A stretch of DNA of 64,000 bases, from the IMG/VR virus record IMGVR_UViG_2541047802_000007. One strand, 5' to 3'. Under the pieces are notes generated by a model. It ran no database searches and was not told the origin of the DNA. It was given only the letters and a program-made list of their open reading frames with translations. Shown here in pieces: positions 1 through 58,377 of the stretch. The translations under genes were made by a program, and so were the position numbers. How positions within the stretch are numbered: the first letter of the stretch is position 1; every line of letters starts with the position of its first letter. The stretch comes from a virus (Duplodnaviria > Heunggongvirae > Uroviricota > Caudoviricetes).

Positions 1-2049
1 AAGGGGACAGTTATTGCCACGAGTCCAAGGGGCGCAAGCGCCCTGGTCGGCTGCCGCCTCCTGAATGTCAACGGCCTTACGAACCATTTTCCACTTCACC
101 GCATGAGTGCAGATCTTGCCCTCTGCAATGGGTGACCAGATGCCATAAATACGAATACCGTGATCGCCATAGGCGGTCGGCTCTTCGTTGATTTCATAAG
201 CGGTTCTGATGAGGTGATATTTGCGGGGAACCAGTACGCCGCCCTGCTTCATGATGTAGGTGGCAAAACAACCAGCATCAGCAGCGGCTAGGATGGCATC
301 AAGGCGCGGGTTATCCAGTACCGGCGCACCTGCTTTTTTGTCCCCCTGTTGCCTTGCCGCCTGACCAGCCAGCAATCGCAGTTCACGGTAAGCCTGACGC
401 CCCGGAATGCCAAAGAAGCGGAATTGCTGAACACGATGCAGAGACGCCCAGGCATTAACGTATTCAGCGTTATCACGCAGGGATTTACCCGTTTCCTTGC
501 TGATCTCGCCAGCCAGACCACGCCCGTCAATGTTCTTACTGATGTATTTCGCGATGTAGCTTGTTGGCGTACCTTTGCGCGGGTTTATCAGCTCAGACTT
601 AAAGCGTGGTTCCGTGTTATTACCCAGCTCCTCGCGGTCTTCACGAATGGCAAACTTACGCAACAAAGCAGTAATGGCGCGGCGATCTTTTTTGCGCATA
701 AAACACAACAGGTGCCAGTGAACTGTACCGTCATGATGCGGCTCAGCCACCCGCACGCCATACCAGCGTAATCCGGCTTTGTGCATCGCCTTACGAAATG
801 CAGCAAACATACCGACCAGATAATCACTGCTTTGTCTTACCGTCGCATTTGTCCAGGTCGGGTTGGGCCTGCCGTTATTTAGCGTGGAATGGAAACGTGA
901 CGGACAGGTGATGGTGTAGAAAACGGCGCAGTCACCGCGCATTTCCGCGATAAGCTCCAGACCTTTAACACAGGCCATCATCTCATTGCGGCGATGCGCA
1001 GGGTTGCTGCTGCTGGCGTTTACCACGTCTTCCATATCCAGCGTGTCGCCGTCTTCGTTCACCAGTTCATGAGAACGGAAAAACTCCAGCGACTTACGGC
1101 GCTGCTCACGTTTATGCATCACGGCTTCATAGCTGACATAGGGAGATGCTTTTTTGCTGACCAGGCAAACAGCACGCAACTGCTCTTCCCGCCATTCGCA
1201 ACGCATCTTCCATAATTTCCGATACCACCAGTCGGCGCATAACATACGCGCCAGCGAACCCGGAATGAGTTCATAAGGCACGGGTTTACGGCGGTTTCTT
1301 TTCCGACGGAGTTGCTCAAACGCAGGCGGGATAACATCCAGACGCAGGGTTTCCGCTGCCACCTTTTCCCATGTTTTGCGGATTTCTTCTGGCTTAATGT
1401 CATCGGTGGCATACAAATCACCACAAGCTGCATCAAGGCACATGCTCATATGCGCGGCGACAAGGGTAGACAGGCGCTTCACCTGATCCTGACTCATTTC
1501 AGGCAGGATCAGCAGGCCGTCCAGCCCTTCATGGCTTGCCATAAAGCGAAAAGAAGTGGATAGCTGACAGTCGCGTACATGCTCCAGTCGTTCCAGACAT
1601 GGCTTAATCGTCTCACGCAAATAGCGGGAATAAGCCTTTGGCCTGCCCAGGCTGCTGAAGTATTCAATACGTTGCATCAGCGGCTTGCTGATATGGGAAG
1701 GCTGGGCGTTAACGTCCGCCAGAATGACCATGTCTGGATTAAAACGCTGCTGCTCATGCGCCAGCTTTGCCCGGCTAATGAGCTTATCCTGCTCCATTTC
1801 GCGTTGGACAGGATCACGGGATTCATTAAAGAAATAACGCTCCCAGGCCTGATCACTCAGTGCCTCGCGGCGCAGCTGTTCCTGCTCGTTATCGGCAGCG
1901 TACAGAGTGATCAGGTTTGAAAGCGCAGAAACCGGCGCGACTTCCGCCGGGTCCAGATAAGGGTTAATGGCCTTTTTCGGGCTGTTCCATGAGAACGCTG
2001 CGGCAGCCTCGTTAAAGCCGCAGCAGTTGTTCATATCGGCATGACTCAT
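1..2049 (-). CDS. A: Phage replication initiation protein gpA-like, partial (3' end beyond window start)
   Basis: Mirror of 28089..30176; start codon region at 2041-2049 is revcomp of atgagtcat. Confidence 0.75.
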
Positions 2050-2903
2050 GCACGTACTCCGTACACGGCTGAACTATCCACGCCACGCGAATAATCAAAT
2101 CCCACCCAGCAGCGTGTCCCGGAAACAGCGATGATTTCTGTTGCAGATTTACTCTCACCAGCTGCTACGCCGATGCTGCGTTTTGCCTTGATGTAGTGGT
2201 GAGTAAAATTGCGATACAGCGAACGGATCAGGGATGTGTCACTGTTAGAAACAATGACCGGATGTCCTTCTGATGACCGATGTTCAAGAAGGGATGCCAG
2301 GTGATACTGGTCATCTTCAGTGAAGCCGTCAGTGTGATAGTCGGAAAACGTACCGTCATAAGGCGGATCGCAATACACCACATCCCCCGCCTTCAACATC
2401 GCCAGCGTTTCATCAAAGCTGGCGCATATAAACGTTGCCCGCTGGGCTTTCTCTGCAAATGCGCGAATTTCTTTTTCAGGGAAATACGGATTTTTATAAT
2501 TACCGTACGGAATGTTGAAATGCCCGCTCTTGTTATAGCGACATAACCCACGGTAACCATGACGATTGAGATACAGGAAATATACCGCTTTCATGAAATC
2601 AGTAATTTCAATGGAGTAATTAAACTCCTGCCTTATGTTGTAATAAGCCACATCCCTGTTTGCTTCCTCAAATAAAGCTCTGGCACGAGATATAAACGCC
2701 TCGCAATCAGCAGCAACCTTTTTATAGAGGTTGATTAAATCAGGATTAATATCCGCAACAAGATAGCTGGGGTAATCCGTCTCCATCATCACAGCACAGG
2801 AACCCGCGAAAGGTTCAACCAGTCGCGAGCCAGCAGGAAGATGTTTTTTCAGTTCGGACATAATGGCGGTTTTATTTCCCGCCCATTTCAGGATGGTGCT
2901 CAT
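2046..2903 (-). CDS. dam: DNA adenine methyltransferase (Dam-like)
   Basis: Mirror of 27235..28092; [12 protein letters not shown]-terminus, FAGSCAV and DPPY motifs. Confidence 0.85.
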
Positions 2904-3127
2904 ACAACACCTCCGTTGTAATGTTTGCCTTTCAGCTCTGCGATTTCCTGACAGGTAATGCAAAGCTGCACTCCAGGAATGGCGCGGCGTCGTGCTGGCG
3001 GAATTGGCGCTTCACATTCAATACAAAGCACACGAGACACGCCCGGTGTTTTGGCACGGGCAGCACGGATATAGCGCTGGCGTTCTTCTTCAACGCGCTG
3101 CTGTACGAGATCCATTGCATCTGCCAT
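2900..3127 (-). CDS. TraR/DksA-type C4 zinc-finger protein
   Basis: CIECEAPIP...CITCQ four-Cys motif, 75 aa; mirror of 27011..27238. Confidence 0.6.
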   Translation of the reverse strand: MADAMDLVQQRVEEERQRYIRAARAKTPGVSRVLCIECEAPIPPARRRAIPGVQLCITCQEIAELKGKHYNGGVV

Positions 3128-10099: not shown

Positions 10100-10924
<825 letters not shown>

Positions 10925-11080: not shown

Positions 11081-11092
11081 AAAATCCCTTAA

Positions 11093-11308: not shown

Positions 11309-11321
11309 CAAAAGAAGTGTT

Positions 11322-11500: not shown

Positions 11501-11924
11501 GCTAAAACTTTCGTTCAGGAAACTCTGAATGATACCTGAGAGTCTACTGAAGAGTTGTTTGTTCACTAGTTAGCACGTAGGAAATCATTCAATACTCGCA
11601 CTATCGGAAGTTCACCAGCCAGTCGTAGCACGTCCTTGCAAACGACGTGCCTACGGTTTCAATCACCTCTCACCATCAATTCTATCAATAATAATTAAAC
11701 AGCGCCTAGACAAAATAAATAACAACAAGTCAACAACCTCGACAGGATGCCGATGGGATGATGAAGAGATAAGAAAGAATAACCAGTAAAGCCCTAAAAC
11801 GTCAGCGTTCAGACGCGTTTTTTACTTAATCGGTAACAAATACGTTGTATCATAGCAAAATAAAATGATTGTTCTAAATCAGATTAACTCCTCACTTTTG
11901 TACAATGTCGCTTACAGGTATACC

Positions 11925-13814
11925 ATGAAATCCGAGACGCTAACTGTCCAACAACTTTTTCAAGACCGCCGACAATACTGTGTTCCATTCTATCAACGTG
12001 CCTATGTATGGACTCAGCAAGACCAGTGGTCAGCTCTACTGGAGGATATCCTAGAGAAAGTACAATCCCGGCTCTCGGGTACAAAACCAACTCCCCATTT
12101 CCTTGGTGCGGTTGTACTGGAACCTCAATCAAAAAAAGGATTATTAGGTGTAGATTCCATACATATTATTGATGGTCAGCAACGATTGACCACTCTTCAA
12201 TATGTTCTGGCATCCATCCGATTAGCATTACGTGCTACGGATCTTTCCAGCTTAGAGGCTCTCATTTCGCCTTGCCTGAAAAACTCAAACGAAGACACAA
12301 TGCGAAATAAAGAAGTAGAACGCTTCAAACTGTGGCCAACTTTTCGGGATCAAACTCATTTTATTCAAAGTTTTAATGTTGAAAATATTGACGATCTCCG
12401 GGACGTATTCTCTGATAGTTTCACGCAGCATGGTACGTTGCGTAAGCATTTTAATCACCCGCCATCACTAGAAGCATTATGTTTTTTTACTGAAGCCTTT
12501 ATAAAATGGATTAAAATAGAAAACCACTCACCACAAGAAAATGCTGTAGCTCTAATTGAGGCTGTCTTAACAGATCTGAAACTGGTAAGCATATTTCTCG
12601 AAGCTGAAGATGATGCCCAAATAATTTTTGAAACATTAAATGGGCGAGGGGCGGAACTTCATGCTACGGATCTTATTCGCAACTATATCTTTATGTGCGC
12701 TGAGCATGAAAATATTAATGCTATTGAATTATATGAAAATGAGTGGAAGAGCTTTGAAGATAAATACTGGTCGGAAAAACAACGCCGTGGACGTATTAAT
12801 AAACCACGCATGGAGTGGCTAGTACATGCGACATTGCAATCAGAAAGGCAACGTGAAATTGATCTGTCTCGCCTTTACAATGAGTATCGTGATTATGTAA
12901 GTAAGGACTTGTCTTCACAACGAGCAGATCTGCAAGTAAAGCGCCTCAAACAATATGCATCACAATATAAAGAATTGGTTGATGGTTTTGGCACAACCCC
13001 CATCTCACACTTTGGATATCGCATCGCAGACTATGATGTGACGACACTTTATCCGCTTGCTTTGTTCATTTCGATAGCTAACATCGCTGATGATGAGAAA
13101 GCAGCCATGTATAATGATCTTGTCTCCTACGTAGTACGAAGAGCCGTATGTGGCCTGACGCCAAAGAATTACAACAATGTATTTATGAATGTATTGCGGC
13201 ACTTGGCTAAAACGGAAATTTCCAGTGTTGAGTTACGTAATATCCTCAATAACTTAAATGGCGAAGCCTCACGTTGGCCTGGTGACTCAGAATTTCTCAA
13301 CGCTTGCATCAATGCTCCACTTTATCCTGGCAGGCTCGACGCACCGAAAATGCGCTCAATGTTAACGGAACTTGAAAGAGAACTTTGTCGCCAAGTAAAG
13401 ACAGAAAAGCCTGATGTTCCAAATCTTTCTAATCTCGATATCGATCATCTTATGCCTCAAAGTTGGTATTCCTGTTGGCCTCTCGAAAATGGTCGTATGG
13501 TGACAAATTCAGATGCTACGGTATTGAACCAAATTGTTCTGTCTGGAACCGATCTTACCCCTGAACAGCTACTGGTAAGGAAACGGCAACAAGCGATATC
13601 TACTTTGGGAAATCTAACTTTGCTTAACCTTAGCGTAAACCGTTCTGTTCAGAATGCTGTATTTCTGAAAAAACGTGATGCTCTCATCGTCCACACCAAT
13701 CTACGACTGAACATTCCACTTATAGTTAAGGATAAATGGGATGAGGATGAAATCCTGGAGCGGGGTAAAAAGTTGGGGGAAATTGCATTGAAAGTATGGC
13801 CAAAACACGATTAA
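11925..13814 (+). CDS. GmrSD-like type IV restriction endonuclease (DUF262 + DUF1524)
   Basis: FYQRAYVW and IDGQQR motifs N-terminal; DIDHLMPQSW...GNLTLLNLSVN C-terminal; track start 11865, ATG 11925 preferred. Confidence 0.7.
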   Translation: MKSETLTVQQLFQDRRQYCVPFYQRAYVWTQQDQWSALLEDILEKVQSRLSGTKPTPHFLGAVVLEPQSKKGLLGVDSIHIIDGQQRLTTLQYVLASIRLALRATDLSSLEALISPCLKNSNEDTMRNKEVERFKLWPTFRDQTHFIQSFNVENIDDLRDVFSDSFTQHGTLRKHFNHPPSLEALCFFTEAFIKWIKIENHSPQENAVALIEAVLTDLKLVSIFLEAEDDAQIIFETLNGRGAELHATDLIRNYIFMCAEHENINAIELYENEWKSFEDKYWSEKQRRGRINKPRMEWLVHATLQSERQREIDLSRLYNEYRDYVSKDLSSQRADLQVKRLKQYASQYKELVDGFGTTPISHFGYRIADYDVTTLYPLALFISIANIADDEKAAMYNDLVSYVVRRAVCGLTPKNYNNVFMNVLRHLAKTEISSVELRNILNNLNGEASRWPGDSEFLNACINAPLYPGRLDAPKMRSMLTELERELCRQVKTEKPDVPNLSNLDIDHLMPQSWYSCWPLENGRMVTNSDATVLNQIVLSGTDLTPEQLLVRKRQQAISTLGNLTLLNLSVNRSVQNAVFLKKRDALIVHTNLRLNIPLIVKDKWDEDEILERGKKLGEIALKVWPKHD

Positions 13815-13926
13815 TGCAATTAATAAAATGATTATAGTGGCCTTACATTAGTAAGGCCGCTACTCACTATTAAATACTTTAATTTGCATCAAGAACAGCA
13901 GTGTCAGCCCTAGGTCTCGGACTTTG

Positions 13927-14049
13927 TACCGCTTATCTTGTCTTCAAAAATCAGCTCGCATCCTGCACAGTTCAGCGCATTACGTTGTAGATCTGTGTTC
14001 TGGTCATTTGTTGACACACGTACATAGCCAATAAGCATGGTAGATCTCC
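13927..14049 (-). pseudogene. Pin-like serine invertase, truncated after ~41 codons
   Basis: MLIGYVRVSTNDQNTDLQRNALNCAGCELIFEDKISGTKSE then stop; intact homolog at 56819..57436. Confidence 0.75.
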
Positions 14050-14092
14050 CTGACAAAAGCAGGAATGATGCCATTTGCTCGTTATTTCTGCA

Positions 14093-14118
14093 TTTTCATA
14101 AACGTTGGTTTGGGAGAA
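14093..14118. other. 26-bp invertase crossover site (pix/hix-like), left
   Basis: ttttcataaacgttggtttgggagaa; inverted copy at 16020..16045. Confidence 0.7.
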
Positions 14119-14559
14119 GCGGCAAAACGGAATGTGGGCAACGGGGAAAACCAAATCCCTGATATGTCTTTCTGGACGGTTACTGGTGGCAATGGAAATT
14201 TTGTGATTCGTCAACCTGACGGGCTAATCATTCAGATGGTTACTGTAAGTATAAGCGGCCCAGTGGCGATGAATGGAATGACTGATAATGCTTATGCCAT
14301 CACAGGTTCTAATAAGTCTTATATTGCCACAGCCACATTGCCCTTTGTATTTCCTAATAAGGTGCTGGGCGTTATCCCTCTGGTATCAACAACAGCTTAT
14401 GGTGGTGTATCCAGTAATATTACAGGTTCATACGCGACGGCGGTTTGTTCTTTTGCCGCTGTCAGGGGGAATAATACGATTGTGTTCAAAGTCGACAAAC
14501 CACTGAATGCAGCCTTTCCTTCAGATACCAGCGTCTCAGCGTTAATCATTGGACGGTAA
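14119..14559 (+). CDS. Tail-fibre C-terminal variable segment (Sv type), no own start
   Basis: Open frame runs through crossover site (FINVGLGE); track ORF 14065..14559 has artefactual N-terminus. Confidence 0.6.
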   Translation, partial: AAKRNVGNGENQIPDMSFWTVTGGNGNFVIRQPDGLIIQMVTVSISGPVAMNGMTDNAYAITGSNKSYIATATLPFVFPNKVLGVIPLVSTTAYGGVSSNITGSYATAVCSFAAVRGNNTIVFKVDKPLNAAFPSDTSVSALIIGR

Positions 14560-14561
14560 TA

Positions 14562-15005
14562 ATGAACTCAGTATTCTTTTCACCCGGAAGTAAAAGTTTT
14601 TATCTGCAAGAATTGTTTCCAGAATATGAGGATGCGGGAACGCTTCCTGATGATGTTATTGAAATTACCAGAGAAACATATGAGCAATTTCTTGGTCTGC
14701 ATCCAGAAGGGAAAGAAATTGGCGCTGACAGTTCAGGACGGCCAGTATGGATTAATTCCCCACCCCCTTCAAAAGAGGATGAGGTGTTGACGGCTGAAAT
14801 GAAAAAAATATCTTTGGTTTCAGAAGTCAATACCTACATCAATACCCATCAGTGGCCTGGCAAAGCTGCTATTGGTCGTCTGAAAGGCGAGGAACTGGCG
14901 CAATATAATTCGTGGCTGGATTATCTGGACGCACTGGAACTGGTCGATACTTCCTGTGCGCCAGATATTGAATGGCCTACGCCTCCGGCAGTTCAGGCCA
15001 GATGA
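14562..15005 (+). CDS. Tail fibre assembly chaperone
   Basis: 147 aa directly after Sv; C-terminal DIEWPTPP. Confidence 0.65.
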   Translation: MNSVFFSPGSKSFYLQELFPEYEDAGTLPDDVIEITRETYEQFLGLHPEGKEIGADSSGRPVWINSPPPSKEDEVLTAEMKKISLVSEVNTYINTHQWPGKAAIGRLKGEELAQYNSWLDYLDALELVDTSCAPDIEWPTPPAVQAR

Positions 15006-15579
15006 CATCCGGCGCTGTGCTGGTATTTGTTGCCGTCACCGCGTCAATGTAATCCAGCACAGCGTTAAGCCGGGTTGTTTCTGCCTGCATCAGCTTCCGT
15101 CCGGCCTGTAATTTCAGCTGAATCAGACCGATGGAAGCCATTGCAGCATCAATCAGTGACTGACGCTGTGCTTCTGCCGCGTCTACTGCGGCGCTATGCT
15201 GTGCCTCAGTATCGGTCACCCATTTCTCACCATCCCATTTATCGTATGGCGTTAATGGGGCAATAGTGGTTGTATTTTCGGGGTAATCACCCGGTGCTGT
15301 GATTTGTTTTGATTCTCCCGTTTCGGTGTTATAGACGATTTCACCGCGATGGTCTGGCACATATTCCCATGAATTTAAATTCACAGAACGACAGATAGCA
15401 TAACCCGCCTTATGTATACCTGGTGCATCCAGACAGGAATATGCCGGGATACCAACACCAACGGCAAGATATTCACTTGAAGTGGAAATATATTCCCGAG
15501 TTTCACCATCATAGTTATAAACGGTAATATCCCCTGCCTTTGTAGCAACAAGTCCACTATTTAATATTGCTTTATCCAT
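14977..15579 (-). CDS. Tail fibre assembly chaperone (TfaE-like), near-identical to prophage gpG at 47600..48202
   Basis: 200 aa MDKAILNSGLVATKAGDITVYNYDGETREY...; TAATG overlap with Sv' stop. Confidence 0.75.
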   Translation of the reverse strand: MDKAILNSGLVATKAGDITVYNYDGETREYISTSSEYLAVGVGIPAYSCLDAPGIHKAGYAICRSVNLNSWEYVPDHRGEIVYNTETGESKQITAPGDYPENTTTIAPLTPYDKWDGEKWVTDTEAQHSAAVDAAEAQRQSLIDAAMASIGLIQLKLQAGRKLMQAETTRLNAVLDYIDAVTATNTSTAPDVIWPELPEA

Positions 15580-16019
15580 TATGCTGCTCTCACGATATAG
15601 TTAAATGCAATGTTGCGTGGACGGGTATCGACGGGGTTAACGGCCACTGTACCCGACACGGACTGGTCATTACCGTTGCTAACGGTAATGTTACTACTGG
15701 TTGATCCAATCCCTACTGAATCGGTAAATTTAGCACCTGAGCCGCTCAAAGTTCCCGAGATGATAGCTAGCTCCACATAAAAAGTACCTACAGTTGGCTC
15801 TTGTGTTGACAGCACCGCACGCCTTGAATCAACGCCGCGCCCATCATCCCAGCCACGAATAAACTCACCACGTAAATCAGGCAATTTATTTGTCGGATAA
15901 GCCTTTGCCAGTTCCGGGTATTCTTCAGCAGAAAAAGCCGCACCGTTGCATTTCAGCCAGCCTGTTGGCGGTGTGGCTGAAGGCCATGGAACAGGCACAC
16001 CAACAGGTAATGCAGAGCC
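15579..16019 (-). CDS. Tail-fibre C-terminal variable segment (Sv' type), no own start
   Basis: GEGSALPVGVPVPWPSATPPTGWLKCNGAAF... shares N-part and last 13 aa with gpH C-terminus. Confidence 0.65.
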   Translation of the reverse strand, partial: GSALPVGVPVPWPSATPPTGWLKCNGAAFSAEEYPELAKAYPTNKLPDLRGEFIRGWDDGRGVDSRRAVLSTQEPTVGTFYVELAIISGTLSGSGAKFTDSVGIGSTSSNITVSNGNDQSVSGTVAVNPVDTRPRNIAFNYIVRAA

Positions 16020-16045
16020 TTCTCCCAAACCAACGTTTATGAAAA
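16020..16045. other. 26-bp invertase crossover site, right
   Basis: ttctcccaaaccaacgtttatgaaaa. Confidence 0.7.
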
Positions 16046-16088
16046 TGCAGAAATAACGAGCAAATGGCATCATTCCTGCTTTTGTCAG

Positions 16089-16211
16089 GGAGATCTACCA
16101 TGCTTATTGGCTATGTACGTGTGTCAACAAATGACCAGAACACAGATCTACAACGTAATGCGCTGAACTGTGCAGGATGCGAGCTGATTTTTGAAGACAA
16201 GATAAGCGGTA
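16089..16211 (+). pseudogene. Pin-like serine invertase, truncated after ~41 codons
   Basis: Same N-terminus as Gin at 56819..57436, then abrupt divergence and stop. Confidence 0.75.
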
Positions 16212-16323
16212 CAAAGTCCGAGACCTAGGGCTGACACTGCTGTTCTTGATGCAAATTAAAGTATTTAATAGTGAGTAGCGGCCTTACTAATGTAAGGCCA
16301 CTATAATCATTTTATTAATTGCA

Positions 16324-18213
16324 TTAATCGTGTTTTGGCCATACTTTCAATGCAATTTCCCCCAACTTTTTACCCCGCTCCAGGATTTCATCCTCATCCC
16401 ATTTATCCTTAACTATAAGTGGAATGTTCAGTCGTAGATTGGTGTGGACGATGAGAGCATCACGTTTTTTCAGAAATACAGCATTCTGAACAGAACGGTT
16501 TACGCTAAGGTTAAGCAAAGTTAGATTTCCCAAAGTAGATATCGCTTGTTGCCGTTTCCTTACCAGTAGCTGTTCAGGGGTAAGATCGGTTCCAGACAGA
16601 ACAATTTGGTTCAATACCGTAGCATCTGAATTTGTCACCATACGACCATTTTCGAGAGGCCAACAGGAATACCAACTTTGAGGCATAAGATGATCGATAT
16701 CGAGATTAGAAAGATTTGGAACATCAGGCTTTTCTGTCTTTACTTGGCGACAAAGTTCTCTTTCAAGTTCCGTTAACATTGAGCGCATTTTCGGTGCGTC
16801 GAGCCTGCCAGGATAAAGTGGAGCATTGATGCAAGCGTTGAGAAATTCTGAGTCACCAGGCCAACGTGAGGCTTCGCCATTTAAGTTATTGAGGATATTA
16901 CGTAACTCAACACTGGAAATTTCCGTTTTAGCCAAGTGCCGCAATACATTCATAAATACATTGTTGTAATTCTTTGGCGTCAGGCCACATACGGCTCTTC
17001 GTACTACGTAGGAGACAAGATCATTATACATGGCTGCTTTCTCATCATCAGCGATGTTAGCTATCGAAATGAACAAAGCAAGCGGATAAAGTGTCGTCAC
17101 ATCATAGTCTGCGATGCGATATCCAAAGTGTGAGATGGGGGTTGTGCCAAAACCATCAACCAATTCTTTATATTGTGATGCATATTGTTTGAGGCGCTTT
17201 ACTTGCAGATCTGCTCGTTGTGAAGACAAGTCCTTACTTACATAATCACGATACTCATTGTAAAGGCGAGACAGATCAATTTCACGTTGCCTTTCTGATT
17301 GCAATGTCGCATGTACTAGCCACTCCATGCGTGGTTTATTAATACGTCCACGGCGTTGTTTTTCCGACCAGTATTTATCTTCAAAGCTCTTCCACTCATT
17401 TTCATATAATTCAATAGCATTAATATTTTCATGCTCAGCGCACATAAAGATATAGTTGCGAATAAGATCCGTAGCATGAAGTTCCGCCCCTCGCCCATTT
17501 AATGTTTCAAAAATTATTTGGGCATCATCTTCAGCTTCGAGAAATATGCTTACCAGTTTCAGATCTGTTAAGACAGCCTCAATTAGAGCTACAGCATTTT
17601 CTTGTGGTGAGTGGTTTTCTATTTTAATCCATTTTATAAAGGCTTCAGTAAAAAAACATAATGCTTCTAGTGATGGCGGGTGATTAAAATGCTTACGCAA
17701 CGTACCATGCTGCGTGAAACTATCAGAGAATACGTCCCGGAGATCGTCAATATTTTCAACATTAAAACTTTGAATAAAATGAGTTTGATCCCGAAAAGTT
17801 GGCCACAGTTTGAAGCGTTCTACTTCTTTATTTCGCATTGTGTCTTCGTTTGAGTTTTTCAGGCAAGGCGAAATGAGAGCCTCTAAGCTGGAAAGATCCG
17901 TAGCACGTAATGCTAATCGGATGGATGCCAGAACATATTGAAGAGTGGTCAATCGTTGCTGACCATCAATAATATGTATGGAATCTACACCTAATAATCC
18001 TTTTTTTGATTGAGGTTCCAGTACAACCGCACCAAGGAAATGGGGAGTTGGTTTTGTACCCGAGAGCCGGGATTGTACTTTCTCTAGGATATCCTCCAGT
18101 AGAGCTGACCACTGGTCTTGCTGAGTCCATACATAGGCACGTTGATAGAATGGAACACAGTATTGTCGGCGGTCTTGAAAAAGTTGTTGGACAGTTAGCG
18201 TCTCGGATTTCAT
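16324..18213 (-). CDS. GmrSD-like type IV restriction endonuclease (DUF262 + DUF1524)
   Basis: Mirror of 11925..13814. Confidence 0.7.
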   Translation of the reverse strand: MKSETLTVQQLFQDRRQYCVPFYQRAYVWTQQDQWSALLEDILEKVQSRLSGTKPTPHFLGAVVLEPQSKKGLLGVDSIHIIDGQQRLTTLQYVLASIRLALRATDLSSLEALISPCLKNSNEDTMRNKEVERFKLWPTFRDQTHFIQSFNVENIDDLRDVFSDSFTQHGTLRKHFNHPPSLEALCFFTEAFIKWIKIENHSPQENAVALIEAVLTDLKLVSIFLEAEDDAQIIFETLNGRGAELHATDLIRNYIFMCAEHENINAIELYENEWKSFEDKYWSEKQRRGRINKPRMEWLVHATLQSERQREIDLSRLYNEYRDYVSKDLSSQRADLQVKRLKQYASQYKELVDGFGTTPISHFGYRIADYDVTTLYPLALFISIANIADDEKAAMYNDLVSYVVRRAVCGLTPKNYNNVFMNVLRHLAKTEISSVELRNILNNLNGEASRWPGDSEFLNACINAPLYPGRLDAPKMRSMLTELERELCRQVKTEKPDVPNLSNLDIDHLMPQSWYSCWPLENGRMVTNSDATVLNQIVLSGTDLTPEQLLVRKRQQAISTLGNLTLLNLSVNRSVQNAVFLKKRDALIVHTNLRLNIPLIVKDKWDEDEILERGKKLGEIALKVWPKHD

Positions 18214-18637
18214 GGTATACCTGTAAGCGACATTGTACAAAAGTGAGGAGTTAATCTGATTTAGAACAATCATTTTATTTTGCTATGATACAACGTATTT
18301 GTTACCGATTAAGTAAAAAACGCGTCTGAACGCTGACGTTTTAGGGCTTTACTGGTTATTCTTTCTTATCTCTTCATCATCCCATCGGCATCCTGTCGAG
18401 GTTGTTGACTTGTTGTTATTTATTTTGTCTAGGCGCTGTTTAATTATTATTGATAGAATTGATGGTGAGAGGTGATTGAAACCGTAGGCACGTCGTTTGC
18501 AAGGACGTGCTACGACTGGCTGGTGAACTTCCGATAGTGCGAGTATTGAATGATTTCCTACGTGCTAACTAGTGAACAAACAACTCTTCAGTAGACTCTC
18601 AGGTATCATTCAGAGTTTCCTGAACGAAAGTTTTAGC

Positions 18638-18816
18638 TCAATCTTTATCTGCAGTATGTCTAACTGAAAAACTATCGTTGCTGGTGGCTTTTACGATCAT
18701 CTCCACATCGTCATAACGCTTGCCAATGTGTTGGGTTAATTCTTCCTTTAACGCGTCCACAGCGCCGTTTGGCATTTGGTCATTTTGTCTTTGGCTATGG
18801 AGATCTCAATACGCAT
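18638..18816 (-). pseudogene. dinI-like gene disrupted by frameshift
   Basis: Mirror of 11322..11500. Confidence 0.4.
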
Positions 18817-18829
18817 AACACTTCTTTTG

Positions 18830-18849
18830 TACTGCGTTTGTAGACAGTA
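18830..18849. promoter_or_regulatory. LexA-box-like sequence
   Basis: Mirror of 11289..11308. Confidence 0.35.
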
Positions 18850-19016
18850 TTATTCTTATCTGTGTAAATAAACAGTATCAAGACTTCGTTTTAGCTGCAT
18901 AAGAAAAAAGAGATGGATACATTCGGAAAGATTTTGATGGTGGTAGGCTAAGTGAATAGCCTAAAGGTGTTTTACCCCAATTATTCCCCGGTATTTCTCC
19001 GCATAAAAAACAATCA

Positions 19017-19045
19017 TAAAAAAACCAGCCATAATAGGCTGGTTC
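19017..19045 (-). terminator. Rho-independent terminator
   Basis: Mirror of 11093..11121. Confidence 0.5.
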
Positions 19046-19057
19046 TTAAGGGATTTT

Positions 19058-19103
19058 TGGTCGGCACGAGAGGATTTGAACCTCCGCCCCCCGACACCCC
19101 ATG
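19058..19103 (-). other. tRNA-Pro 3' fragment (att remnant)
   Basis: Mirror of 11035..11080. Confidence 0.65.
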
Positions 19104-19213
19104 ATGGCGAGCTACGATCTTAAGGGCTGTTATGTGCCAGAAACAGAGATTTTTATATTCCTCACTCTGGAAATCATAATGCTAACTAGTAGGGATTATA
19201 AGTTGTCAATTGA

Positions 19214-20038
<825 letters not shown>

Positions 20039-20248
20039 TTTCGGAATGGAACTGGATTTCATATTGTGGTCAATTTTCGCACATGATGAGAGAGAGCCCG
20101 CGATAGTTGGCTCTTTTGTGCAAAGTCTGACCAATATTTATTCCCCTCACTGGACGTTACACTCAGACTATCCACTGCTGACATGCCAGTGATTTAAAAG
20201 GAATGCTGCTGATTTAAATAGCGAAAACTTCACTAAAGAGGATGTAAA

Positions 20249-20542
20249 ATGACACTACCCAAGTTCAGGAATGACCTACAAGTTGAAGCTAATTACTCTA
20301 TCAATCAAGCCCGTGAAATGGTTGGGAAAACGGTGAAATCTGTCCAGATTGGTTTTCAGAAAACTGGAGTACAGGTTCATCAGACTGAAATGCTAATCAT
20401 CACGTTTACAGATGACACTCAACTTGCCATCTCAACAGGTTCAAACGTTGTAAACATAACGTCGTTAATTGGGCGTGGTGGCAGTTGCGAGCTTAAGCCT
20501 GCGGATTTTCACGTAGATTTTGATTTGACCTGGCAAAGATGA
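20249..20542 (+). CDS. Hypothetical small protein
   Basis: ORF track 97 aa. Confidence 0.35.
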   Translation: MTLPKFRNDLQVEANYSINQAREMVGKTVKSVQIGFQKTGVQVHQTEMLIITFTDDTQLAISTGSNVVNITSLIGRGGSCELKPADFHVDFDLTWQR

Positions 20543-20629
20543 CAAATCCGGCCGTGCCAGCGGCCTTTTTCATGCTCGTCCTGCTGGCACGGCCGCAAAC
20601 CTAATCCTGTAAGGTGACACTTAAGCGTG

Positions 20630-21418
20630 TCAGAACTGCGCAATAACAACCTTCACTTTTCCTTCCGCGTCTTTAGATTCCAGATCGGTTTTCACGCCCA
20701 AAGGATTATTTATGTAGCAATCCGGGTCATATACAAACAAGATCAACGTATCGCAGTCTTGGTGAGCGCGGTAGCGCGCCATATCAATAAGCAACTCTCC
20801 ACCAACTTTACCCGCTCCCAGAGATTCACGGGTTTTCTTCACCTCTATCACAATTTTCTCTTTTTTCAAAAGAAAGTCCTGTCTTGAGGCCGCGCCCGCA
20901 AAGCTGGGGGTATACTCTTCCGCCCTAATATCATTAAAATGAAGCGTCAGCAGTGCATAAATCAAATCCTGTACGTCATACTCATCATTAACTTCAAGCG
21001 GCGCACGGCCGTTGTACCGCCTCTTTAACTGGCGAACAAAGGTCGGAAACCTGTTAAGAATATTAAGTACGAGGCTCAGCGGCGAACCTTCTTGAGGAGT
21101 ATTAGTACTGACAGCAGAGTGCGCAAGATCATCTCTCGCCGCATCAAACAACGGTTTATAACTTTTGATCAGTGTATTGTAATTAGAAGACCACCTGCTG
21201 TTTACAGTATTGAAGTCATTGTAATAATCAGACTCTTTTCCGTAGCTGTCCTCTATTAACTTTTTCACTCTGGCGATCCAGTTTTTATATTTACCAGAAT
21301 CAACATAGGTTTCCATAGTGTGAGTGAGAACGTTCTGCGCAGTATATTTTGTGGAAATGAGCGCATCGTAATCTTTCTCAAGCGCCCTAAATCTTTCTTC
21401 CAGTTGTAGATTTGTCAT
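20630..21418 (-). CDS. Hypothetical protein with PD-(D/E)xK-like motif
   Basis: Mirror of 8720..9508. Confidence 0.45.
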   Translation of the reverse strand: MTNLQLEERFRALEKDYDALISTKYTAQNVLTHTMETYVDSGKYKNWIARVKKLIEDSYGKESDYYNDFNTVNSRWSSNYNTLIKSYKPLFDAARDDLAHSAVSTNTPQEGSPLSLVLNILNRFPTFVRQLKRRYNGRAPLEVNDEYDVQDLIYALLTLHFNDIRAEEYTPSFAGAASRQDFLLKKEKIVIEVKKTRESLGAGKVGGELLIDMARYRAHQDCDTLILFVYDPDCYINNPLGVKTDLESKDAEGKVKVVIAQF

Positions 21419-21612
21419 AGTGCCTTCCAGGCTGTATAGTCGGATAACAAGGTCTGTGCGTATGGAAATTCTACCATACTTAGCCTTCTTTTCTTCACAC
21501 TGGGCGTAACAGCCATTCTGTCCAGCCCCCCTAGCGTGATCTTACCTGCTGCGGCATTCGGTTGTCTTAGCTCCGGAATAATATTCGGAGATGCATAACT
21601 GTCCAGTGCCAT
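21415..21612 (-). CDS. Hypothetical small protein
   Basis: Mirror of 8526..8723. Confidence 0.3.
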   Translation of the reverse strand: MALDSYASPNIIPELRQPNAAAGKITLGGLDRMAVTPSVKKRRLSMVEFPYAQTLLSDYTAWKAL

Positions 21613-21844
21613 ACGCGCCCCAATCCTATATATCTACTTCATAGCTTTTCAGTAAGGAATGAATATATTAATTTCTGTGATGATTAGTATCGGAGGGTAC
21701 GAATGACTATATATCGCTCATAGCAAACGCTCACATCTGTTATGGTTAGAAAGCAGGAAGAGGGGGACAGGCTACGGTATAAGAAAAGTGGGTTGTTGTT
21801 TATGGCCGCATTGAGAGTGTCGAATCAGGCTAAAGAGAAGAAGC

Positions 21845-21870
21845 AAAAAAGCCCGCATCAGCGGGCTTTC
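21845..21870 (-). terminator. Rho-independent terminator beyond att
   Basis: Mirror of 8268..8293. Confidence 0.5.
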
Positions 21871-21997
21871 ATTTCACTTCGGAGCCGCGGCTCCTTTGCG
21901 TATCCTTTTATGTCTCCTCACCGTCTGGTCGGTGTCCTGCTGAGACTTCTAACTTCCTGTTTTTGTTGGTGTTGTCCTTACACCGTCCAATCATGAT

Positions 21998-22042
21998 TGG
22001 TGGAGCTGGCGGGAGTTGAACCCGCGTCCGAAATTCCTACAT
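21998..22042 (-). other. ssrA: ssrA 3'-end fragment = prophage att core
   Basis: Revcomp matches tmRNA 3' end ending CCA; 3' end points away from prophage. Confidence 0.8.
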
Positions 22043-22158
22043 ACCATTATAACATGTTGCAAAACAACTATTTATGTTAATTTTCAATCACTTAAGTTTA
22101 CGATGTATTACCTTGTTTTATGTGTTTTTAACTCTTTGCCGCCATTATGCCGCCACTC

Positions 22159-31436: not shown

Positions 31437-32846
31437 ATGTCTTTTCTTGATATAAAAAAAATGAGTAAAGAGAGGTTTAATGCTTTTGTTGATTGGACCA
31501 GAATGCCAAATACTGAACTTTTAGGCTATGAGTTTGAGTGGTACTGTAGTCCGAGAGAGTTCCTGCTAGGGGCACTATTATTGGATCAAATCGATGAAGA
31601 TTATAGCGGTATTGTTTTAGCAAGAGACTTAAGTGGGAGATATAGATGTATTGACCTATTTACTAGTGTTTCAGAAATGAATTCTGCACGAGCAAAACTA
31701 AAGAAATTAATGCGGAAGCATACTAAATTAAACGTAAAAGTATTTCCACAAGGTGATGAAACTTATAAAGCAATGGATTTATTCACACCTATAGTTACAC
31801 CAGATAAACTTCATCATCATTTTTCATTATTTGGTAAATATGCGAACTGGTCGCCTGCAACAGGGATAATCAAGGAAATGATGAATCATTTTGAGGATGT
31901 CGACGGGAATTTTATAGAGCAGTTTCAGACAACAGGTTTTGATGCCCGGCTATGGGAGTTATATCTTTTCGCATATTTACGAGAGGAACACTTTTGGCTA
32001 GATAGGCAGTTTAATGCCCCTGATTATGTGGCACGTAAGTATGGTAATACTATTTGCATTGAAGCTGTAACGGTTAATCCAACAGGGAATGATATTAATC
32101 AATCATCTGAAATGCTATCTGAACCTAAAAGTAAGGAAGAATTGCTAGAGAAAATAGAGAATTATATGCCGATTAAATTTGGAAGTTCTCTCTATTCTAA
32201 ACTGAAAAAGAAAACTCGATACTGGGATCTAGAACATGTTAAGGGGAATCCTTTAATTTTCGCAATTGCTGATTTTCATGAACCAAACTCTATGATTTGG
32301 TCCCATAGTGCACTTTGGCAGTATCTTTATGGTATTCGCTATGAGCATGTTAAATCTGAAGATGGATGTTACAGTTTAGCAACTAAGAAAATTATATCGC
32401 ATCAATTTGAGAAAAAGGAAATTCCTTCAGGCTTTTTCTTCTTGGATGAGTCTGAAAATATTTCGGCCGTCCTTAGTTCTAATAGTGGTACTATATCGAA
32501 GTTTAATCGGATGGGAAAACTGGCTGGTTTTGGAAGAAGTGACCTTAGATTATTTAGGAGTGGTTACTGCCATGATCATGACCCAGAGGCATTATATCCA
32601 GCAGCATTTAGTTTTGAAGTGAAAGAAGGCGATATTACAGAAACATGGGCAGAAGGTTTAAATATGTATCATAATCCTAATGCTAAATATCCTGTAGATC
32701 CTGATTTATTTCCTTCAATAGCACATCATTTTCTTGAAAATGGAGAGGTTAAAAGTATAGTGCCTGACTTTCATCCGTATACATCTATTACCATAAATGT
32801 CTTAACTCAAAATAATAAAAAACAAAAAATCAGAGTAGATGAGTAA
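31437..32846 (+). CDS. AT-rich cargo protein of unknown function, 469 aa
   Basis: Long ORF in low-GC island between cos-like site and portal gene; no recognisable motif. Confidence 0.6.
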   Translation: MSFLDIKKMSKERFNAFVDWTRMPNTELLGYEFEWYCSPREFLLGALLLDQIDEDYSGIVLARDLSGRYRCIDLFTSVSEMNSARAKLKKLMRKHTKLNVKVFPQGDETYKAMDLFTPIVTPDKLHHHFSLFGKYANWSPATGIIKEMMNHFEDVDGNFIEQFQTTGFDARLWELYLFAYLREEHFWLDRQFNAPDYVARKYGNTICIEAVTVNPTGNDINQSSEMLSEPKSKEELLEKIENYMPIKFGSSLYSKLKKKTRYWDLEHVKGNPLIFAIADFHEPNSMIWSHSALWQYLYGIRYEHVKSEDGCYSLATKKIISHQFEKKEIPSGFFFLDESENISAVLSSNSGTISKFNRMGKLAGFGRSDLRLFRSGYCHDHDPEALYPAAFSFEVKEGDITETWAEGLNMYHNPNAKYPVDPDLFPSIAHHFLENGEVKSIVPDFHPYTSITINVLTQNNKKQKIRVDE

Positions 32847-54077: not shown

Positions 54078-55174
54078 ATTTCAGCTCTGAACTGCTTAAC
54101 AAAGGCAACAAAACTCCCGCATTCAGCATCAGTATTGAGGGCAGGGATATCACCACTGTGCTGGATAACCGCCTGATGAGTTTGACGCTGACGGATAACC
54201 GGGGCTTTGAAGCGGACCAGCTTGATCTGGAGCTGGATGACGCTGACGGAAAAATCGTGCTGCCGCGCCGTGGTGCGGTTATTACGCTGGCGCTGGGCTG
54301 GAAGGGGCAGCCGCTTTTCCCGAAAGGGGCATTCACAGTGGACGAGATTGAACACACTGGCGCACCGGACCGCCTGACTATCCGGGCGCGAAGTGCTGAT
54401 TTTCGGGAAACGCTGAATACCCGCCGTGAAAAATCGTGGCATAAGACCACCGTCGGGGAAGTGGTGAAGGAAATAGCCGCGCGGCACAAGCTGAAGATGG
54501 CACTGGGTAAAGACCTGTCGGATAAGCCCGTGGAGCATATAGACCAGACTAATGAGAGTGACGGCAGTTTTCTGATGCGGCTGGCGCGACAGTACGGTGC
54601 CATCGCGTCGGTGAAAAATGGCAATCTGTTATTCATCCGGCAGGGGCAGGGCAAAAGCGCCACTGGTAAACCTCTGCCAGTGATCACTATCACACGCAAG
54701 GACGGCGACAGTCACCGATTTACCCTGGCAGATCGCGGAGCCTACACGGGCGTAATTGCCAGCTGGTTGCATACCCGCGAACCTGCGAAGAAAGAAAGCA
54801 CCACGGTGAAGCGTAAGCGCAGAACTAAGAAGCAGAAGAAAGAGCCGGAAGCGAAGCAGGGCGATTACCTGGTGGGTACGGATGAAAACGTGCTGGTACT
54901 TAATCGCACTTATGCCAACCGGAGCAACGCTGAACGGGCAGCGAAAATGCAGTGGGAACGCCTGCAACGCGGCGTTGCGTCATTCTCGCTACAACTGGCG
55001 GAAGGGCGGGCAGATCTTTACACGGAAATGCCAGTGAAAGTTAGTGGCTTTAAACAACCGATAGATGATGCGGAATGGACCATTACGACTCTGACTCATA
55101 CCGTCAGCCCGGATAATGGTTTTACGACCAGTATTGAACTCGAAGTGAAGATTGATGATCTTGAAATGGAATAA
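54074..55174 (+). CDS. D: Tail protein D
   Basis: 366 aa, last tail gene. Confidence 0.75.
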   Translation: MNFSSELLNKGNKTPAFSISIEGRDITTVLDNRLMSLTLTDNRGFEADQLDLELDDADGKIVLPRRGAVITLALGWKGQPLFPKGAFTVDEIEHTGAPDRLTIRARSADFRETLNTRREKSWHKTTVGEVVKEIAARHKLKMALGKDLSDKPVEHIDQTNESDGSFLMRLARQYGAIASVKNGNLLFIRQGQGKSATGKPLPVITITRKDGDSHRFTLADRGAYTGVIASWLHTREPAKKESTTVKRKRRTKKQKKEPEAKQGDYLVGTDENVLVLNRTYANRSNAERAAKMQWERLQRGVASFSLQLAEGRADLYTEMPVKVSGFKQPIDDAEWTITTLTHTVSPDNGFTTSIELEVKIDDLEME

Positions 55175-55242
55175 AGTGTTCTCAATATTGATATTTTGTG
55201 TATCATTACAATGATTCTGATAGCAAAGGTAGGGATCTGGAT

Positions 55243-55329
55243 ATGATGAATTGTCCAAAGTGTGGTCATGCGGCACACACAAGGAGCAGTTTTCAAGTAA
55301 CTGAAAGCACCAAAGAGCGTTACTGCCAG
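55243..55329 (+). pseudogene. ogr: Ogr/B-type zinc-finger late activator, truncated after codon 29 by Mu-like insertion
   Basis: MMNCPKCGHAAHTRSSFQVTESTKERYCQ then stop supplied by first bases of inserted element. Confidence 0.7.
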
Positions 55330-55410
55330 TGAAGCGGCGCACGAAAAGCGCGAAAGCGTTTCAAATAAAATACGAAAACTCAAAACTTTCGCGCTTCAAT
55401 TGAGACAGTT
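55330..55410. promoter_or_regulatory. Mu-type right end with transposase-binding repeats
   Basis: tgaagcggcgcacgaaaagcgcgaaagcgtttcaaataaaatacgaaaac closely resembles the Mu R-end as recalled. Confidence 0.75.
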
Positions 55411-55422
55411 GTTTTATGTATG

Positions 55423-55869
55423 TCAGTTTCGTTTACATTTATATGTCTTAAAAATATTCACATCATCTCGGATATAAAGATTTTTTCCTGATTTATCAAC
55501 GATAAAATACTTTATAACCGCAGGATTTCTAGTCAAAGCATAGAGATAATCAGTCCCTTTAATCTTTTCATCCTTGTCTTGTTCGTCAATTTGGCCTGTT
55601 TCTATCTGAGTGTATAGTTCACCTGTATCAAGGTCTGTCCATGACCCCATATCAACGCCCATATGCATACGAATACCGTGGCAGGTCCAAAAACCAGAGG
55701 CAGGGGCTTTATTTGCAACACTCTTATCTGGATCTATCCCGGCGGACCTTAAGACTGCATCAGCAGCCACTTCAGGATCAAAATCTTTTTCTTGAGCGTG
55801 ATTGACTGAGGAGGCGGTTAGTACGAATAGGCTGATGATGGTACTGATTAGCAATTTTGATTTTTTCAT
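55423..55869 (-). CDS. Secreted hypothetical protein (signal peptide), AT-rich
   Basis: MKKSKLLISTIISLFVLTASSVNHA signal-like N-terminus; between mom and element end. Confidence 0.5.
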   Translation of the reverse strand: MKKSKLLISTIISLFVLTASSVNHAQEKDFDPEVAADAVLRSAGIDPDKSVANKAPASGFWTCHGIRMHMGVDMGSWTDLDTGELYTQIETGQIDEQDKDEKIKGTDYLYALTRNPAVIKYFIVDKSGKNLYIRDDVNIFKTYKCKRN

Positions 55870-55913
55870 CTAATATGCTCCGTATGTGAGTAAATACATA
55901 AATTTATATGATA

Positions 55914-56651
55914 CTAATCAGAACTGCTTTTTGGGTATGGCTGAATCCTGAATAGTTTGGTATTTAGCCGCTTTCTTGCTCGCTTGTTCAGGAACCTGAT
56001 GTAGCGATACTGATTAAATTTGTGCACCACGGCACGCTCTTTATTAGCCCGTAAATACATGCCTCGTTGTCCACCGCGCTTAATTGCGTTCATCGTTATC
56101 TCGTGATACCACTCACCATCCAGCTCGTAGAACGTGCTTTCATGGCTGCCAATAAAATCAAAATTTGACGCCTGATACACAACGCCAGCACGTCCGCAGC
56201 GTTCGTCTGCAAAAGACTGAACCCACTCCACTGACGGATACAGTAACCTTATGGTTTTCAGTGCATAACTGATGGCCCGTGATTCAGAGTTGCGGGGCAT
56301 GTCGTCGTGTAGCCACATGCGGTTCAACTCCATATAGCCCCGGTTATCCGTTTCAAGCACGACACGACGACCAGAGTTGGGGTTAAGGGCATATCCCCAC
56401 TGGAGAACGCCAACCAGATCGCGTCCGCTGAATACTCCCAAGTGGAGGTAAGAGTTATTCACAAAACGGCGGGAATAGTGCTTTGTCTGAATAATTGTGC
56501 GGGCCAGCCAGCAGGATATGGTTTCAACGCGCAGCTCCTTTGAACCATAGCCAACAATCTGGCTTTCATACTCAATAACGCACGGTTTCGTCAGAATGCG
56601 TGATTTCTTCTCTTTTCCCACAATGTTTCTCCGTGGGATGCTCGCAGGCAT
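55914..56651 (-). CDS. mom: Mom-like DNA modification protein (start uncertain)
   Basis: 245 aa ORF overlapping com 3' end, downstream of gin-com. Confidence 0.55.
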
Positions 56652-56760
56652 TCAGCATTATGATATGACGTTTGCAACGCGGACACCTGATTTCAATGTG
56701 ATCAAAGGAATCCGCCTTAAATAACAGTTTGTTGCAGTTTTTACAGCGAATTGATTTCAT
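56572..56760 (-). CDS. com: Com zinc-finger translational activator of mom
   Basis: 62 aa [14 protein letters not shown]...RCPRCKRH four-Cys finger. Confidence 0.7.
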
Positions 56761-56818
56761 CTCACCTCCTTTGCATCAATTCGCCACTATCTTAAAAAAC
56801 ATCGTGGGTTGAGTGTGG

Positions 56819-57436
56819 TTATTGGGGCATAATCGATCTGTATTGCCGATCGATTTGATTGATTCGATCGTCGTTTTCTATATGCGTTCGTTTCGCGGGG
56901 TGTTTTTTATACAGAGTTGACAGAGCCACATCATAGATCAATGCAACCTGCTTGCGGGGGATTCCTTGTACTAATAAACGCCCGGCCTGCTCCCATTCCG
57001 CTTTGGTTAGTTTAGGTGGTCGCCCACCAATACGGCCTTTATTTCTGGCGGCAGCAAGTCCAGCCATCGTTCGCTCGATGATTAGTTCTCGTTCCATTTC
57101 AGCCAGGGCACCCATAACGTGGAAGAAAAAACGCCCCATTGGAGAAGATGTGTCTATGCTGTCGGTAAGACTGCGAAAATTAATCCCTCGCTCCCGTAGT
57201 TCCCCGACGAGGGAAATCAGATGTTTCATGCTTCGCCCGAGGCGATCCAGTTTCCAGACAACCAGTGTGTCACCTTTTTGAAGGCGCTTTAACGCGCGTT
57301 TTAATCCAGGTCTGTCTGTCCTTGTTCCGCTTAATTTATCTTCAAATATTTGTTCACATCCTGCACAAACAAGAGCGTTTCGTTGCAGGTCTGTATTCTG
57401 GTCATTTGTTGATACCCTTACATAGCCAATCAGCAC
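56819..57436 (-). CDS. gin: Gin/Pin-family serine DNA invertase, intact
   Basis: 205 aa; catalytic Ser in YVRVSTNDQ; C-terminal HTH. Confidence 0.85.
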   Translation of the reverse strand: MLIGYVRVSTNDQNTDLQRNALVCAGCEQIFEDKLSGTRTDRPGLKRALKRLQKGDTLVVWKLDRLGRSMKHLISLVGELRERGINFRSLTDSIDTSSPMGRFFFHVMGALAEMERELIIERTMAGLAAARNKGRIGGRPPKLTKAEWEQAGRLLVQGIPRKQVALIYDVALSTLYKKHPAKRTHIENDDRINQIDRQYRSIMPQ

Positions 57437-57490
57437 TCTGGATCTCCCGTTTAAAAGCGCAAATCACGCCATGCAGGCCGGAAACAACCA

Positions 57491-57516
57491 TTATCTAAAA
57501 CCTCGGTTTACAGGAA
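57491..57516. other. gix crossover site (invertase-proximal)
   Basis: ttatctaaaacctcggtttacaggaa, inverted repeat of 60486..60511. Confidence 0.75.
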
Positions 57517-58377
57517 ACGGTAAACAGGGCTGGTAACGCCGTGCAAAAAAATGGCGATACCTTGTCCGGTGGGCTTACTTTTGAAAATGACTCAATCCTT
57601 GCCTGGATTCGAAATACTGACTGGGCGAAGATTGGATTTAAAAATGATGCCGATGGTGACACTGATTCATACATGTGGTTTGAAACAGGCGACAACGGCA
57701 ATGAATATTTCAAATGGAGAAGCCGCCAGAGCACCACAACAAAAGACCTGATGACGCTGAAATGGGATGCACTAAATATTCTGGTAAATGCCGTCATTAA
57801 TGGCAGTCTTGGAGTTGGTACGACGAATGCGTTAGGTGGTAGCTCTATTGTTCTTGGTGATAATGACACCGGATTTAAACAGAATGGAGACGGCATTCTG
57901 GATGTTTATGCTAATAGTCAGCGTGTATTCCGCTTTCAGAATGGAGTGGCTATTGCTTTTAAAAATATTCAGGCTGGGGATGGTAAAAAATTCACGCTAT
58001 CCAGCTCCAACAACTCCACGAAGAACGTAGGGTTTAATTTATGGGGCGCTTCGTCAAGGCCAACTGTTGCAGAGCTTGGCGATGATTCTGGCTGGCATTT
58101 CTATAGTCAGCGAAATACAGATAACTCAGTAATATTTGCTGTTAACGGTCAGATACAACCCAGCAACTGGGGGAATTTTGATTCCCGCTATGTGAAAGAT
58201 GTTCGCCTAGGTACGCGTGTTGTTCAATTGATGGCGCGTGGTGGTCGTTATGAAAAAGCCGGACACGCAATTACCGGATTAAGAATCATTGGTGAAGTAG
58301 ATGGCGATGATGAAGCCATCTTCAGACCAATACAAAAATACATCAATGGCACATGGTATAACGTCGCACAGGTGTAA
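57517..58377 (+). CDS. Alternative tail-fibre variable segment S'v (silent in this orientation)
   Basis: Frame opens at crossover site and would fuse to Sc after inversion. Confidence 0.65.
   Translation, partial: TVNRAGNAVQKNGDTLSGGLTFENDSILAWIRNTDWAKIGFKNDADGDTDSYMWFETGDNGNEYFKWRSRQSTTTKDLMTLKWDALNILVNAVINGSLGVGTTNALGGSSIVLGDNDTGFKQNGDGILDVYANSQRVFRFQNGVAIAFKNIQAGDGKKFTLSSSNNSTKNVGFNLWGASSRPTVAELGDDSGWHFYSQRNTDNSVIFAVNGQIQPSNWGNFDSRYVKDVRLGTRVVQLMARGGRYEKAGHAITGLRIIGEVDGDDEAIFRPIQKYINGTWYNVAQV

Follow-up and report, generated by a model that had tools for sequence, protein, structure and literature searches.

Is the short ORF that overlaps a longer one just downstream of gin in this phage DNA the com gene of a com-mom operon, and would such an operon be expected to work here as it does in phage Mu? 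The first-pass annotation of the window (the whole stretch of 64,000 nucleotides analyzed) had described a 62-aa ORF lying across the start of a 245-aa ORF directly downstream of gin, and had read this as the Mu arrangement in which Com activates translation of Mom. The ORFs lie as described, on the minus strand, and protein families, gene order and DNA identity all agree with a Mu-like com-mom arrangement. Judged from its sequence, the locus is almost certainly the late operon com-mom of a transposable prophage of Mu/D108 type, situated at the right end of that prophage, and it is predicted to work as in Mu. The module as such is already known: it is near-identical to those of sequenced phages and is named by standard annotation, and regulation of mom in Mu, which has been dissected over forty years, is a textbook system. 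The coordinates of the features discussed below are collected in Table 1.

Table 1. Features of the com-mom region and of the adjoining prophage (window coordinates)
Feature	Position	Strand	Description and basis
com	56572..56760	-	62 aa, ATG start; zinc-ribbon translational activator of mom (Pfam, PHROGs, Mu alignment)
mom	55914..56621	-	235 aa from GUG; GNAT-fold adenine N6 glycyl-transferase ('methylcarbamoylase') (Pfam, PHROGs, 8bv8)
mom, longest ORF	55914..56651	-	245 aa from ATG at 56651
gin	56819..57436	-	205 aa; serine invertase of the G segment; Resolvase 7.7e-50, HTH_7 2e-16
Three GATC (Dam) sites	56866-69, 56848-51, 56835-38	-	Identical in Mu, D108 and Mu_3F6
Pmom core	56789..56819	-	-35 ACCACA 56814-19; -10 TAAGAT 56789-94; T6 run 56794-99; 19-bp spacer
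Com target site on com-mom mRNA	56635..56653	-	GAAUGCCUGCGAGCAUCCC; exact match to the published 19-mer
Translation inhibition structure	56617..56637	-	Predicted hairpin CCCACGGA-GAAACA-UUGUGGG; stem holds GGAG and GUG
D108-type gene 56	55423..55869	-	148 aa; N-terminal signal-peptide-like segment; phrog_15648 (unknown function)
Right end (attR) of Mu-type prophage	55330..55380	-	Plus strand begins TGAAGCGGCGCACGAAAAG; D108 transposase-binding region
Truncated ogr/Delta-like late activator gene	55198..55332	+	Ogr_Delta positions 1-27 of 47
Dam-family N6-adenine methyltransferase of P2/186-type prophage	27175..28092	+	MethyltransfD12 1.6e-76; TIGR00571
Mirror copy of Dam-family gene	2046..2963	-	Within the 14-kb inverted repeat

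Between positions 55330 and 57500 the DNA is 99.9% identical to Mu_3F6 (LR595867; over 2171 nt) and 99.4% identical to D108 (GQ357916) and to two Yersinia Mu-type phages. Identity to Mu itself (AF083977) is 96% and reaches as far as the end of mom. The order gin-com-mom is the same in the annotated Mu, D108 and Mu_3F6 records, and in Mu these genes, with Com as Mu_52 and Mom as Mu_53, likewise stand at the right end. The com ATG is found 58 nt downstream of the end of gin, and the overlap of com with mom amounts to 80 nt if mom begins at its ATG and to 50 nt if it begins at 56621, the curated GUG. Protein alignments with Mu revealed no frameshifts or premature stops in com or mom. There is essentially no difference from Mu_3F6 and D108 within the module: Mu_3F6 has an identical Com, an identical Mom and the same 205-aa gin, and the 301 nt of com, mom and control region that were tested match it at 100% identity. 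D108 shares gene 56 and the C-terminal tail of Mom; in Mu_3F6, too, an additional gene stands between mom and the right end. Farther along, the tail-fibre genes of the G segment are mosaic, and coverage of the visible 8.7 kb is 66-79% for Mu_3F6 and D108 and 98% for Yersinia phage vB_YpM_3. Comparable copies of com-mom were found in 98 of 5,426 complete E. coli genomes.

The 245-aa ORF matches the Mom family along the whole of its profile (Pfam PF25680, profile positions 1-202 of 202; 253.4 bits against a cut-off of 27.1, 1.9e-75) and is 98% identical to Mu Mom. The initial reading had hinged on this similarity to Mom-family proteins, and it is present. Matches were also obtained to phrog_1384, 'Mom-like DNA modification protein' (2.3e-84), and to the solved structure PDB 8bv8, 'Methylcarbamoylase mom' (4.3e-156). 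The substitutions relative to Mu are G30S, V133T, V198M, K235R and V236I, and beyond the end of Mu Mom there is a four-residue C-terminal tail, SSSD, that is common to D108 and Mu_3F6. The enzymology and structure of Mom were settled in 2026: the protein is a dimeric GNAT with a helix-turn-helix (HTH)-like insertion at about residues 175-209, and it moves glycine from Gly-tRNA(Gly) onto adenine N6 within S-A-S contexts of double-stranded DNA, after which the glycyl group rearranges on the base to give 6-NcmdA (PMC13219725). Residues R111, S124 and R151 are essential, replacement of D149 by Ala greatly lowers activity, and W48, H58, Y59, Y159 and W181 also matter (PMC13219725). Every one of these residues is kept in the window Mom with its numbering unchanged, and the HTH-like insertion aligns without gaps and with a single conservative change, V198M. 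Membership of the Mom family thus agrees with the Mom-type adenine modification that had been proposed from the sequence, with the predicted chemistry refined to glycyl transfer followed by rearrangement (PMC13219725).

The overlapping 62-aa ORF belongs to the Com family (Pfam Zn_ribbon_Com PF10122, 37 bits against a cut-off of 22.9) and matches phrog_13819, 'gpCom control of modification', over 62 of 62 positions (3.2e-45). Alignment to Mu Com, suggested as a check in the first-pass annotation, gave agreement at 61 of the 62 residues, with K52E as the sole change. The protein had been described as having four cysteines; the length and the four cysteines of the zinc ribbon stand, as two CxxC pairs (C6 and C9, C26 and C29), but there are six in all, the others being at positions 39 and 47. 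Its Shine-Dalgarno sequence, AGGAGG at 56765-70, is the same as in Mu. By sequence, no relative of Com was found among solved structures, the best hits being unrelated zinc ribbons (best E-value 0.13). NCBIfam has no model matching Mom or Com and PADLOC has none for Mom, so that neither collection is informative here. The label given to Com by PGAP, 'Com family DNA-binding transcriptional regulator', differs from its actual role as an RNA-binding translational activator.

Two neighbors set this region apart from Mu. The first is gin, which is 12 codons longer than Mu gin because the Mu stop codon is changed; its product is 205 aa here, those of Mu and D108 being 193 and 197 aa, and Mu_3F6 carries the window variant. 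Two T-to-C changes abolish the Mu and D108 gin stops, with the result that gin reads through the three GATC sites. The 3' end of gin thus traverses the upstream control region of mom, and its stop codon, TAA, shares bases with the -35 of Pmom. The second is the D108-type gene 56, which lies between mom and the right end in the window and is missing from Mu. It begins 44 nt downstream of mom and has no match in Pfam, NCBIfam or PADLOC. A terminator scan gave nothing convincing between mom and gene 56, so the latter may be co-transcribed with mom; it is a neighbor of com-mom and not a demonstrated member of the module.

The Mu-type homology extends to the final base of the Mu_3F6 and D108 records, which corresponds to window position 55330, and D108 annotates two transposase-binding sites in the aligned right end. 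Homology to P2-type phages, coming from the opposite side, ends at 55331. When compared with the intact gene of E. coli S88, the window tracks D-ogr to ...TACTGCCAG(TG) and then passes into the Mu end; the 72-codon ogr/Delta-like gene is broken after codon 29, between its two cysteine pairs. The sequences on either side of the junction thus show that a P2/186-type prophage has received a Mu-type one within its late activator gene. The integrase, CI and CII genes of the interrupted prophage are at 23387-25947 and its gpA is at 28089..30176, and it extends to the insertion point. With its late activator lost to the Mu insertion, this prophage can probably neither turn on the late genes nor complete lytic growth. 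The exact Mu/ogr junction is absent from the 5,426 complete E. coli genomes, in which the same Mu-type right end was found at other places, namely in ldtD, in a carbamate kinase gene or in yjiT.

The window ends within the Mu-type element and covers its last 8.7 kb, out of a prophage of about 37 kb. The gene for the activator C, which in Mu is located about 27 kb from the right end, falls beyond the window. The com-mom genes could in principle be a silent remnant in a prophage that is defective or truncated, for example one without C or the transposition genes, in which the operon is never expressed, and the perfect 14-kb inverted repeat described below advises caution about the assembly. We regard this as unlikely, as all of the visible ORFs are full length and collinear with those of viable phages, including the baseplate genes and a G segment in S-U orientation, and the right end and the transposase-binding region are intact. 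The identity to Mu_3F6 across com, mom and the control region, and the open state of both reading frames, argue in the same direction.

The control region upstream of com was compared with those of Mu, D108 and Mu_3F6 in a 420-nt alignment, in which mean column identity was 99%. None of the three substitutions that separate the window from Mu in the 110 nt upstream of com touches a defined element: the GATC sites, both promoter hexamers, the T6 run and the ribosome-binding site of com are all unchanged. The stretch of the Mu record that aligns with the putative window Pmom is annotated there as a late promoter. In Mu, regulation of mom depends on the interplay between Dam and OxyR, on promoter hexamers of poor sequence and spacing, on a T stretch, on activation by C and, for translation, on Com; mom transcription requires Dam methylation, which keeps OxyR off the GATC region, where it binds if the sites carry no methylation (PMC3378877). 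The mutation tin7 is described as lying at -14 (PMC3378877), and in its published oligonucleotide the fourth T of the run is altered (PMC4461284). With tin7 as an anchor, the transcription start would be at about 56782 and the GATC sites would thus lie at about -87 to -53. Secondary statements (PMC3378877, PMC4461284) and general background underlie the positions assumed for the OxyR and C footprints. Pmom went undetected in a generic sigma-70 scan; with hexamers this poor and 19 bp between them, this was to be expected, and the missing match is consistent with dependence of Pmom on an activator.

The Com-binding site upstream of the mom start, which the first-pass annotation had proposed to look for as a stem-loop, was found as an exact Com target with an adjoining hairpin that encloses the ribosome-binding site and the GUG. 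The native target used in experiments with Com is 5'-GAAUGCCUGCGAGCAUCCC-3', and the motif selected by SELEX is CC(N)2-3GAG (PMC6483171). This 19-mer occurs once in the window, with zero mismatches, where 0 occurrences are expected by chance. It is predicted to form a hairpin of 4 bp with a 6-nt loop, and the loop bears the SELEX motif. Directly 3' of it lies the predicted inhibitory hairpin, of 8 bp and -9.5 kcal/mol (z = -3.07; one of 200 shuffles equally stable). The 19-mer, the hairpin and the GUG are unchanged in Mu, whose sequence folds identically. Over a 96-nt stretch the fold was no better than that of shuffled sequences (z = -0.54), the local 29-nt hairpin alone being significant. 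An Rfam search of 55000-58000 gave no match and is uninformative, since the com-mom RNA switch has no curated family.

Where translation of mom starts bears directly on this switch. In the curated Mu record the Mom CDS start and a ribosome-binding site (GGAG) are placed 30 nt 3' of the ATG; the equivalents in the window are a Shine-Dalgarno GGAG at 56629-32 and a GUG at 56619-21, from which a 235-aa product would be made. The GUG start of mom has been described within the stem of the hairpin (PMC6483171). On the strength of these two sources, the 245 aa are the longest ORF and not the mapped product. It is nevertheless the case that the ATG-initiated frame is open and conserved, that the long form of Mom is annotated in D108 and in several RefSeq records, and that the 2026 structural paper counts Mom residues from the ATG (PMC13219725). 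If translation did start at the ATG at 56651, the hairpin would be intragenic and would have no control of initiation. We consider this very unlikely: the ATG sits within the Com-binding 19-mer (AAUGCC), no Shine-Dalgarno sequence was seen upstream of it, and removal of the first ten residues is well tolerated and leaves Mom activity unimpaired (PMC13219725). The GUG is thus retained here as the start of mom. In RefSeq, Mom goes under varying names ('protein mom', 'Mom family adenine methylcarbamoylation protein', 'hypothetical protein') and with either an ATG or a GUG start. For Mom, automated annotation tends toward the ATG rather than the mapped GUG.

A second class of com-mom, with about 83% nucleotide identity, was encountered in roughly 50 E. 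coli genomes (for example NZ_AP041814 and pCFSAN004178P_01). As in the window, com and mom overlap and the GUG is at the same place. The flanks of the Com site, GAAUGCC...GAGCAUCCC, and both arms of the inhibitory hairpin are invariant, whereas the loops of both hairpins differ, a pattern that fits recognition through CC(N)2-3GAG together with a constrained hairpin. In these loci the stems are invariant and hence show zero compensatory changes, so that covariation analysis gave conservation only; because compensatory changes are missing and two overlapping reading frames constrain the stretch, comparative support for the RNA structure is weak when taken alone. Unlike the window, the second class has homology that begins only within com, with no gin upstream, and a different promoter region that does not have the GATC/Pmom architecture of Mu. 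Its cassettes are situated amid tail-fibre genes of non-Mu prophages or plasmids; in the extracted loci, which come from E. coli chromosomes and plasmid pCFSAN004178P_01, they span 1491-2322 (two loci) and 1491-2331 (a third).

It had also been pointed out from the sequence that mom expression depends on Dam in Mu and that the neighboring prophage encodes Dam. That prophage does carry a Dam-family methylase, which scores 322 bits with TIGR00571 (cut-off 114.85), but any functional connection between it and mom is speculative. The enzyme scores 290 bits against the E. coli Dam equivalog, whose cut-off is 441, and because it falls below this its GATC specificity is presumptive. That this methylase, instead of or besides host Dam, licenses mom is extremely unlikely. 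Such a dependence across prophages would accord with the presence of a Dam-family enzyme next door and with the Dam requirement of Mu mom transcription outlined above. However, Mu inserts nearly at random, as the other insertion sites of the same right end illustrate, and none of the 5,426 genomes repeats the junction with ogr, so the adjacency of the two prophages is most likely accidental. As a rule E. coli carries a dam of its own on the chromosome; this is the one that Mu uses, and it is sufficient for Mu, so that the neighbor's Dam is not needed for mom. We give almost no credence to the further idea that the nested prophages form a functional unit, in which the crippled P2/186-type neighbor would be kept as a fixed defence-plus-Dam island whose methylase helps to license mom, for example where host Dam is limiting; adjacency is the sole specific point in its favor.

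The P2/186-type prophage is also accompanied by a cluster of defence genes, within it or beside it, at 16324-18273 (minus strand), 19232-20038 (plus), 20630-21418 (minus) and 31437-32846 (plus). The cluster includes a GmrSD-type type IV methyl-directed restriction enzyme (PADLOC mREase_IV, 1415 bits), PD-T4-3 (GIY-YIG) and PD-T7-1, as well as a protein with a DpnII/MboI-type restriction endonuclease domain. This GATC-type nuclease domain and the Dam-family methylase, being in the same element, might be a restriction-modification-like pair. The window further contains a perfect (100%) inverted repeat of 14,119 bp, at 1-14119 and 16019-30137, around a center of 1,899 bp; its left arm begins at base 1 of the window and the repeat may be longer. 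The window consequently holds two copies each of the Dam-family gene and of the defence genes at 16-22 kb. In natural E. coli genomes, contiguity with the window at 100% identity is limited to 13000-16038; the window therefore folds back at a short inverted repeat (14065-14119 / 16019-16073) that occurs naturally in an invertible tail-fibre segment. Either the 14-kb repeat is a genuine inverted duplication of large size, or it arose as a fold-back artefact of assembly.

Because the sequences are almost identical, we carry the Mu mechanism over to this prophage: the control elements and catalytic residues are the same, and from them we infer function as in Mu. Nothing in the sequence speaks against this reading. 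During lysogeny and early infection the operon would be silent: with a poor -35, a spacer of 19 bp and a T6 run that distorts it, Pmom is weak, and OxyR would act as a repressor for as long as the three GATC sites upstream lack methylation. Late in the lytic cycle OxyR would be kept off by Dam methylation at these sites, and the phage activator C, whose gene is outside the window, would unwind Pmom and recruit RNA polymerase. A bicistronic com-mom mRNA would then begin near 56782, and com would be translated from its strong ribosome-binding site. By default mom would not be translated, because its GGAG and GUG are locked in the 8-bp hairpin; binding of Com to the short 5' hairpin (GAAUGCCUGCGAGCAUCCC) would open the inhibitory hairpin and allow mom to be translated. 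Mom, as a dimer of the GNAT fold, would transfer glycine from Gly-tRNA(Gly) to the N6 of adenines in S-A-S contexts of double-stranded DNA, after which rearrangement of the glycyl group on the base would yield N6-carbamoylmethyl-adenine (6-NcmdA). Modification would reach roughly one adenine in five, and the phage DNA would then resist many restriction enzymes. For a strain that bears this prophage, it follows that the virion DNA should be resistant to many restriction enzymes.
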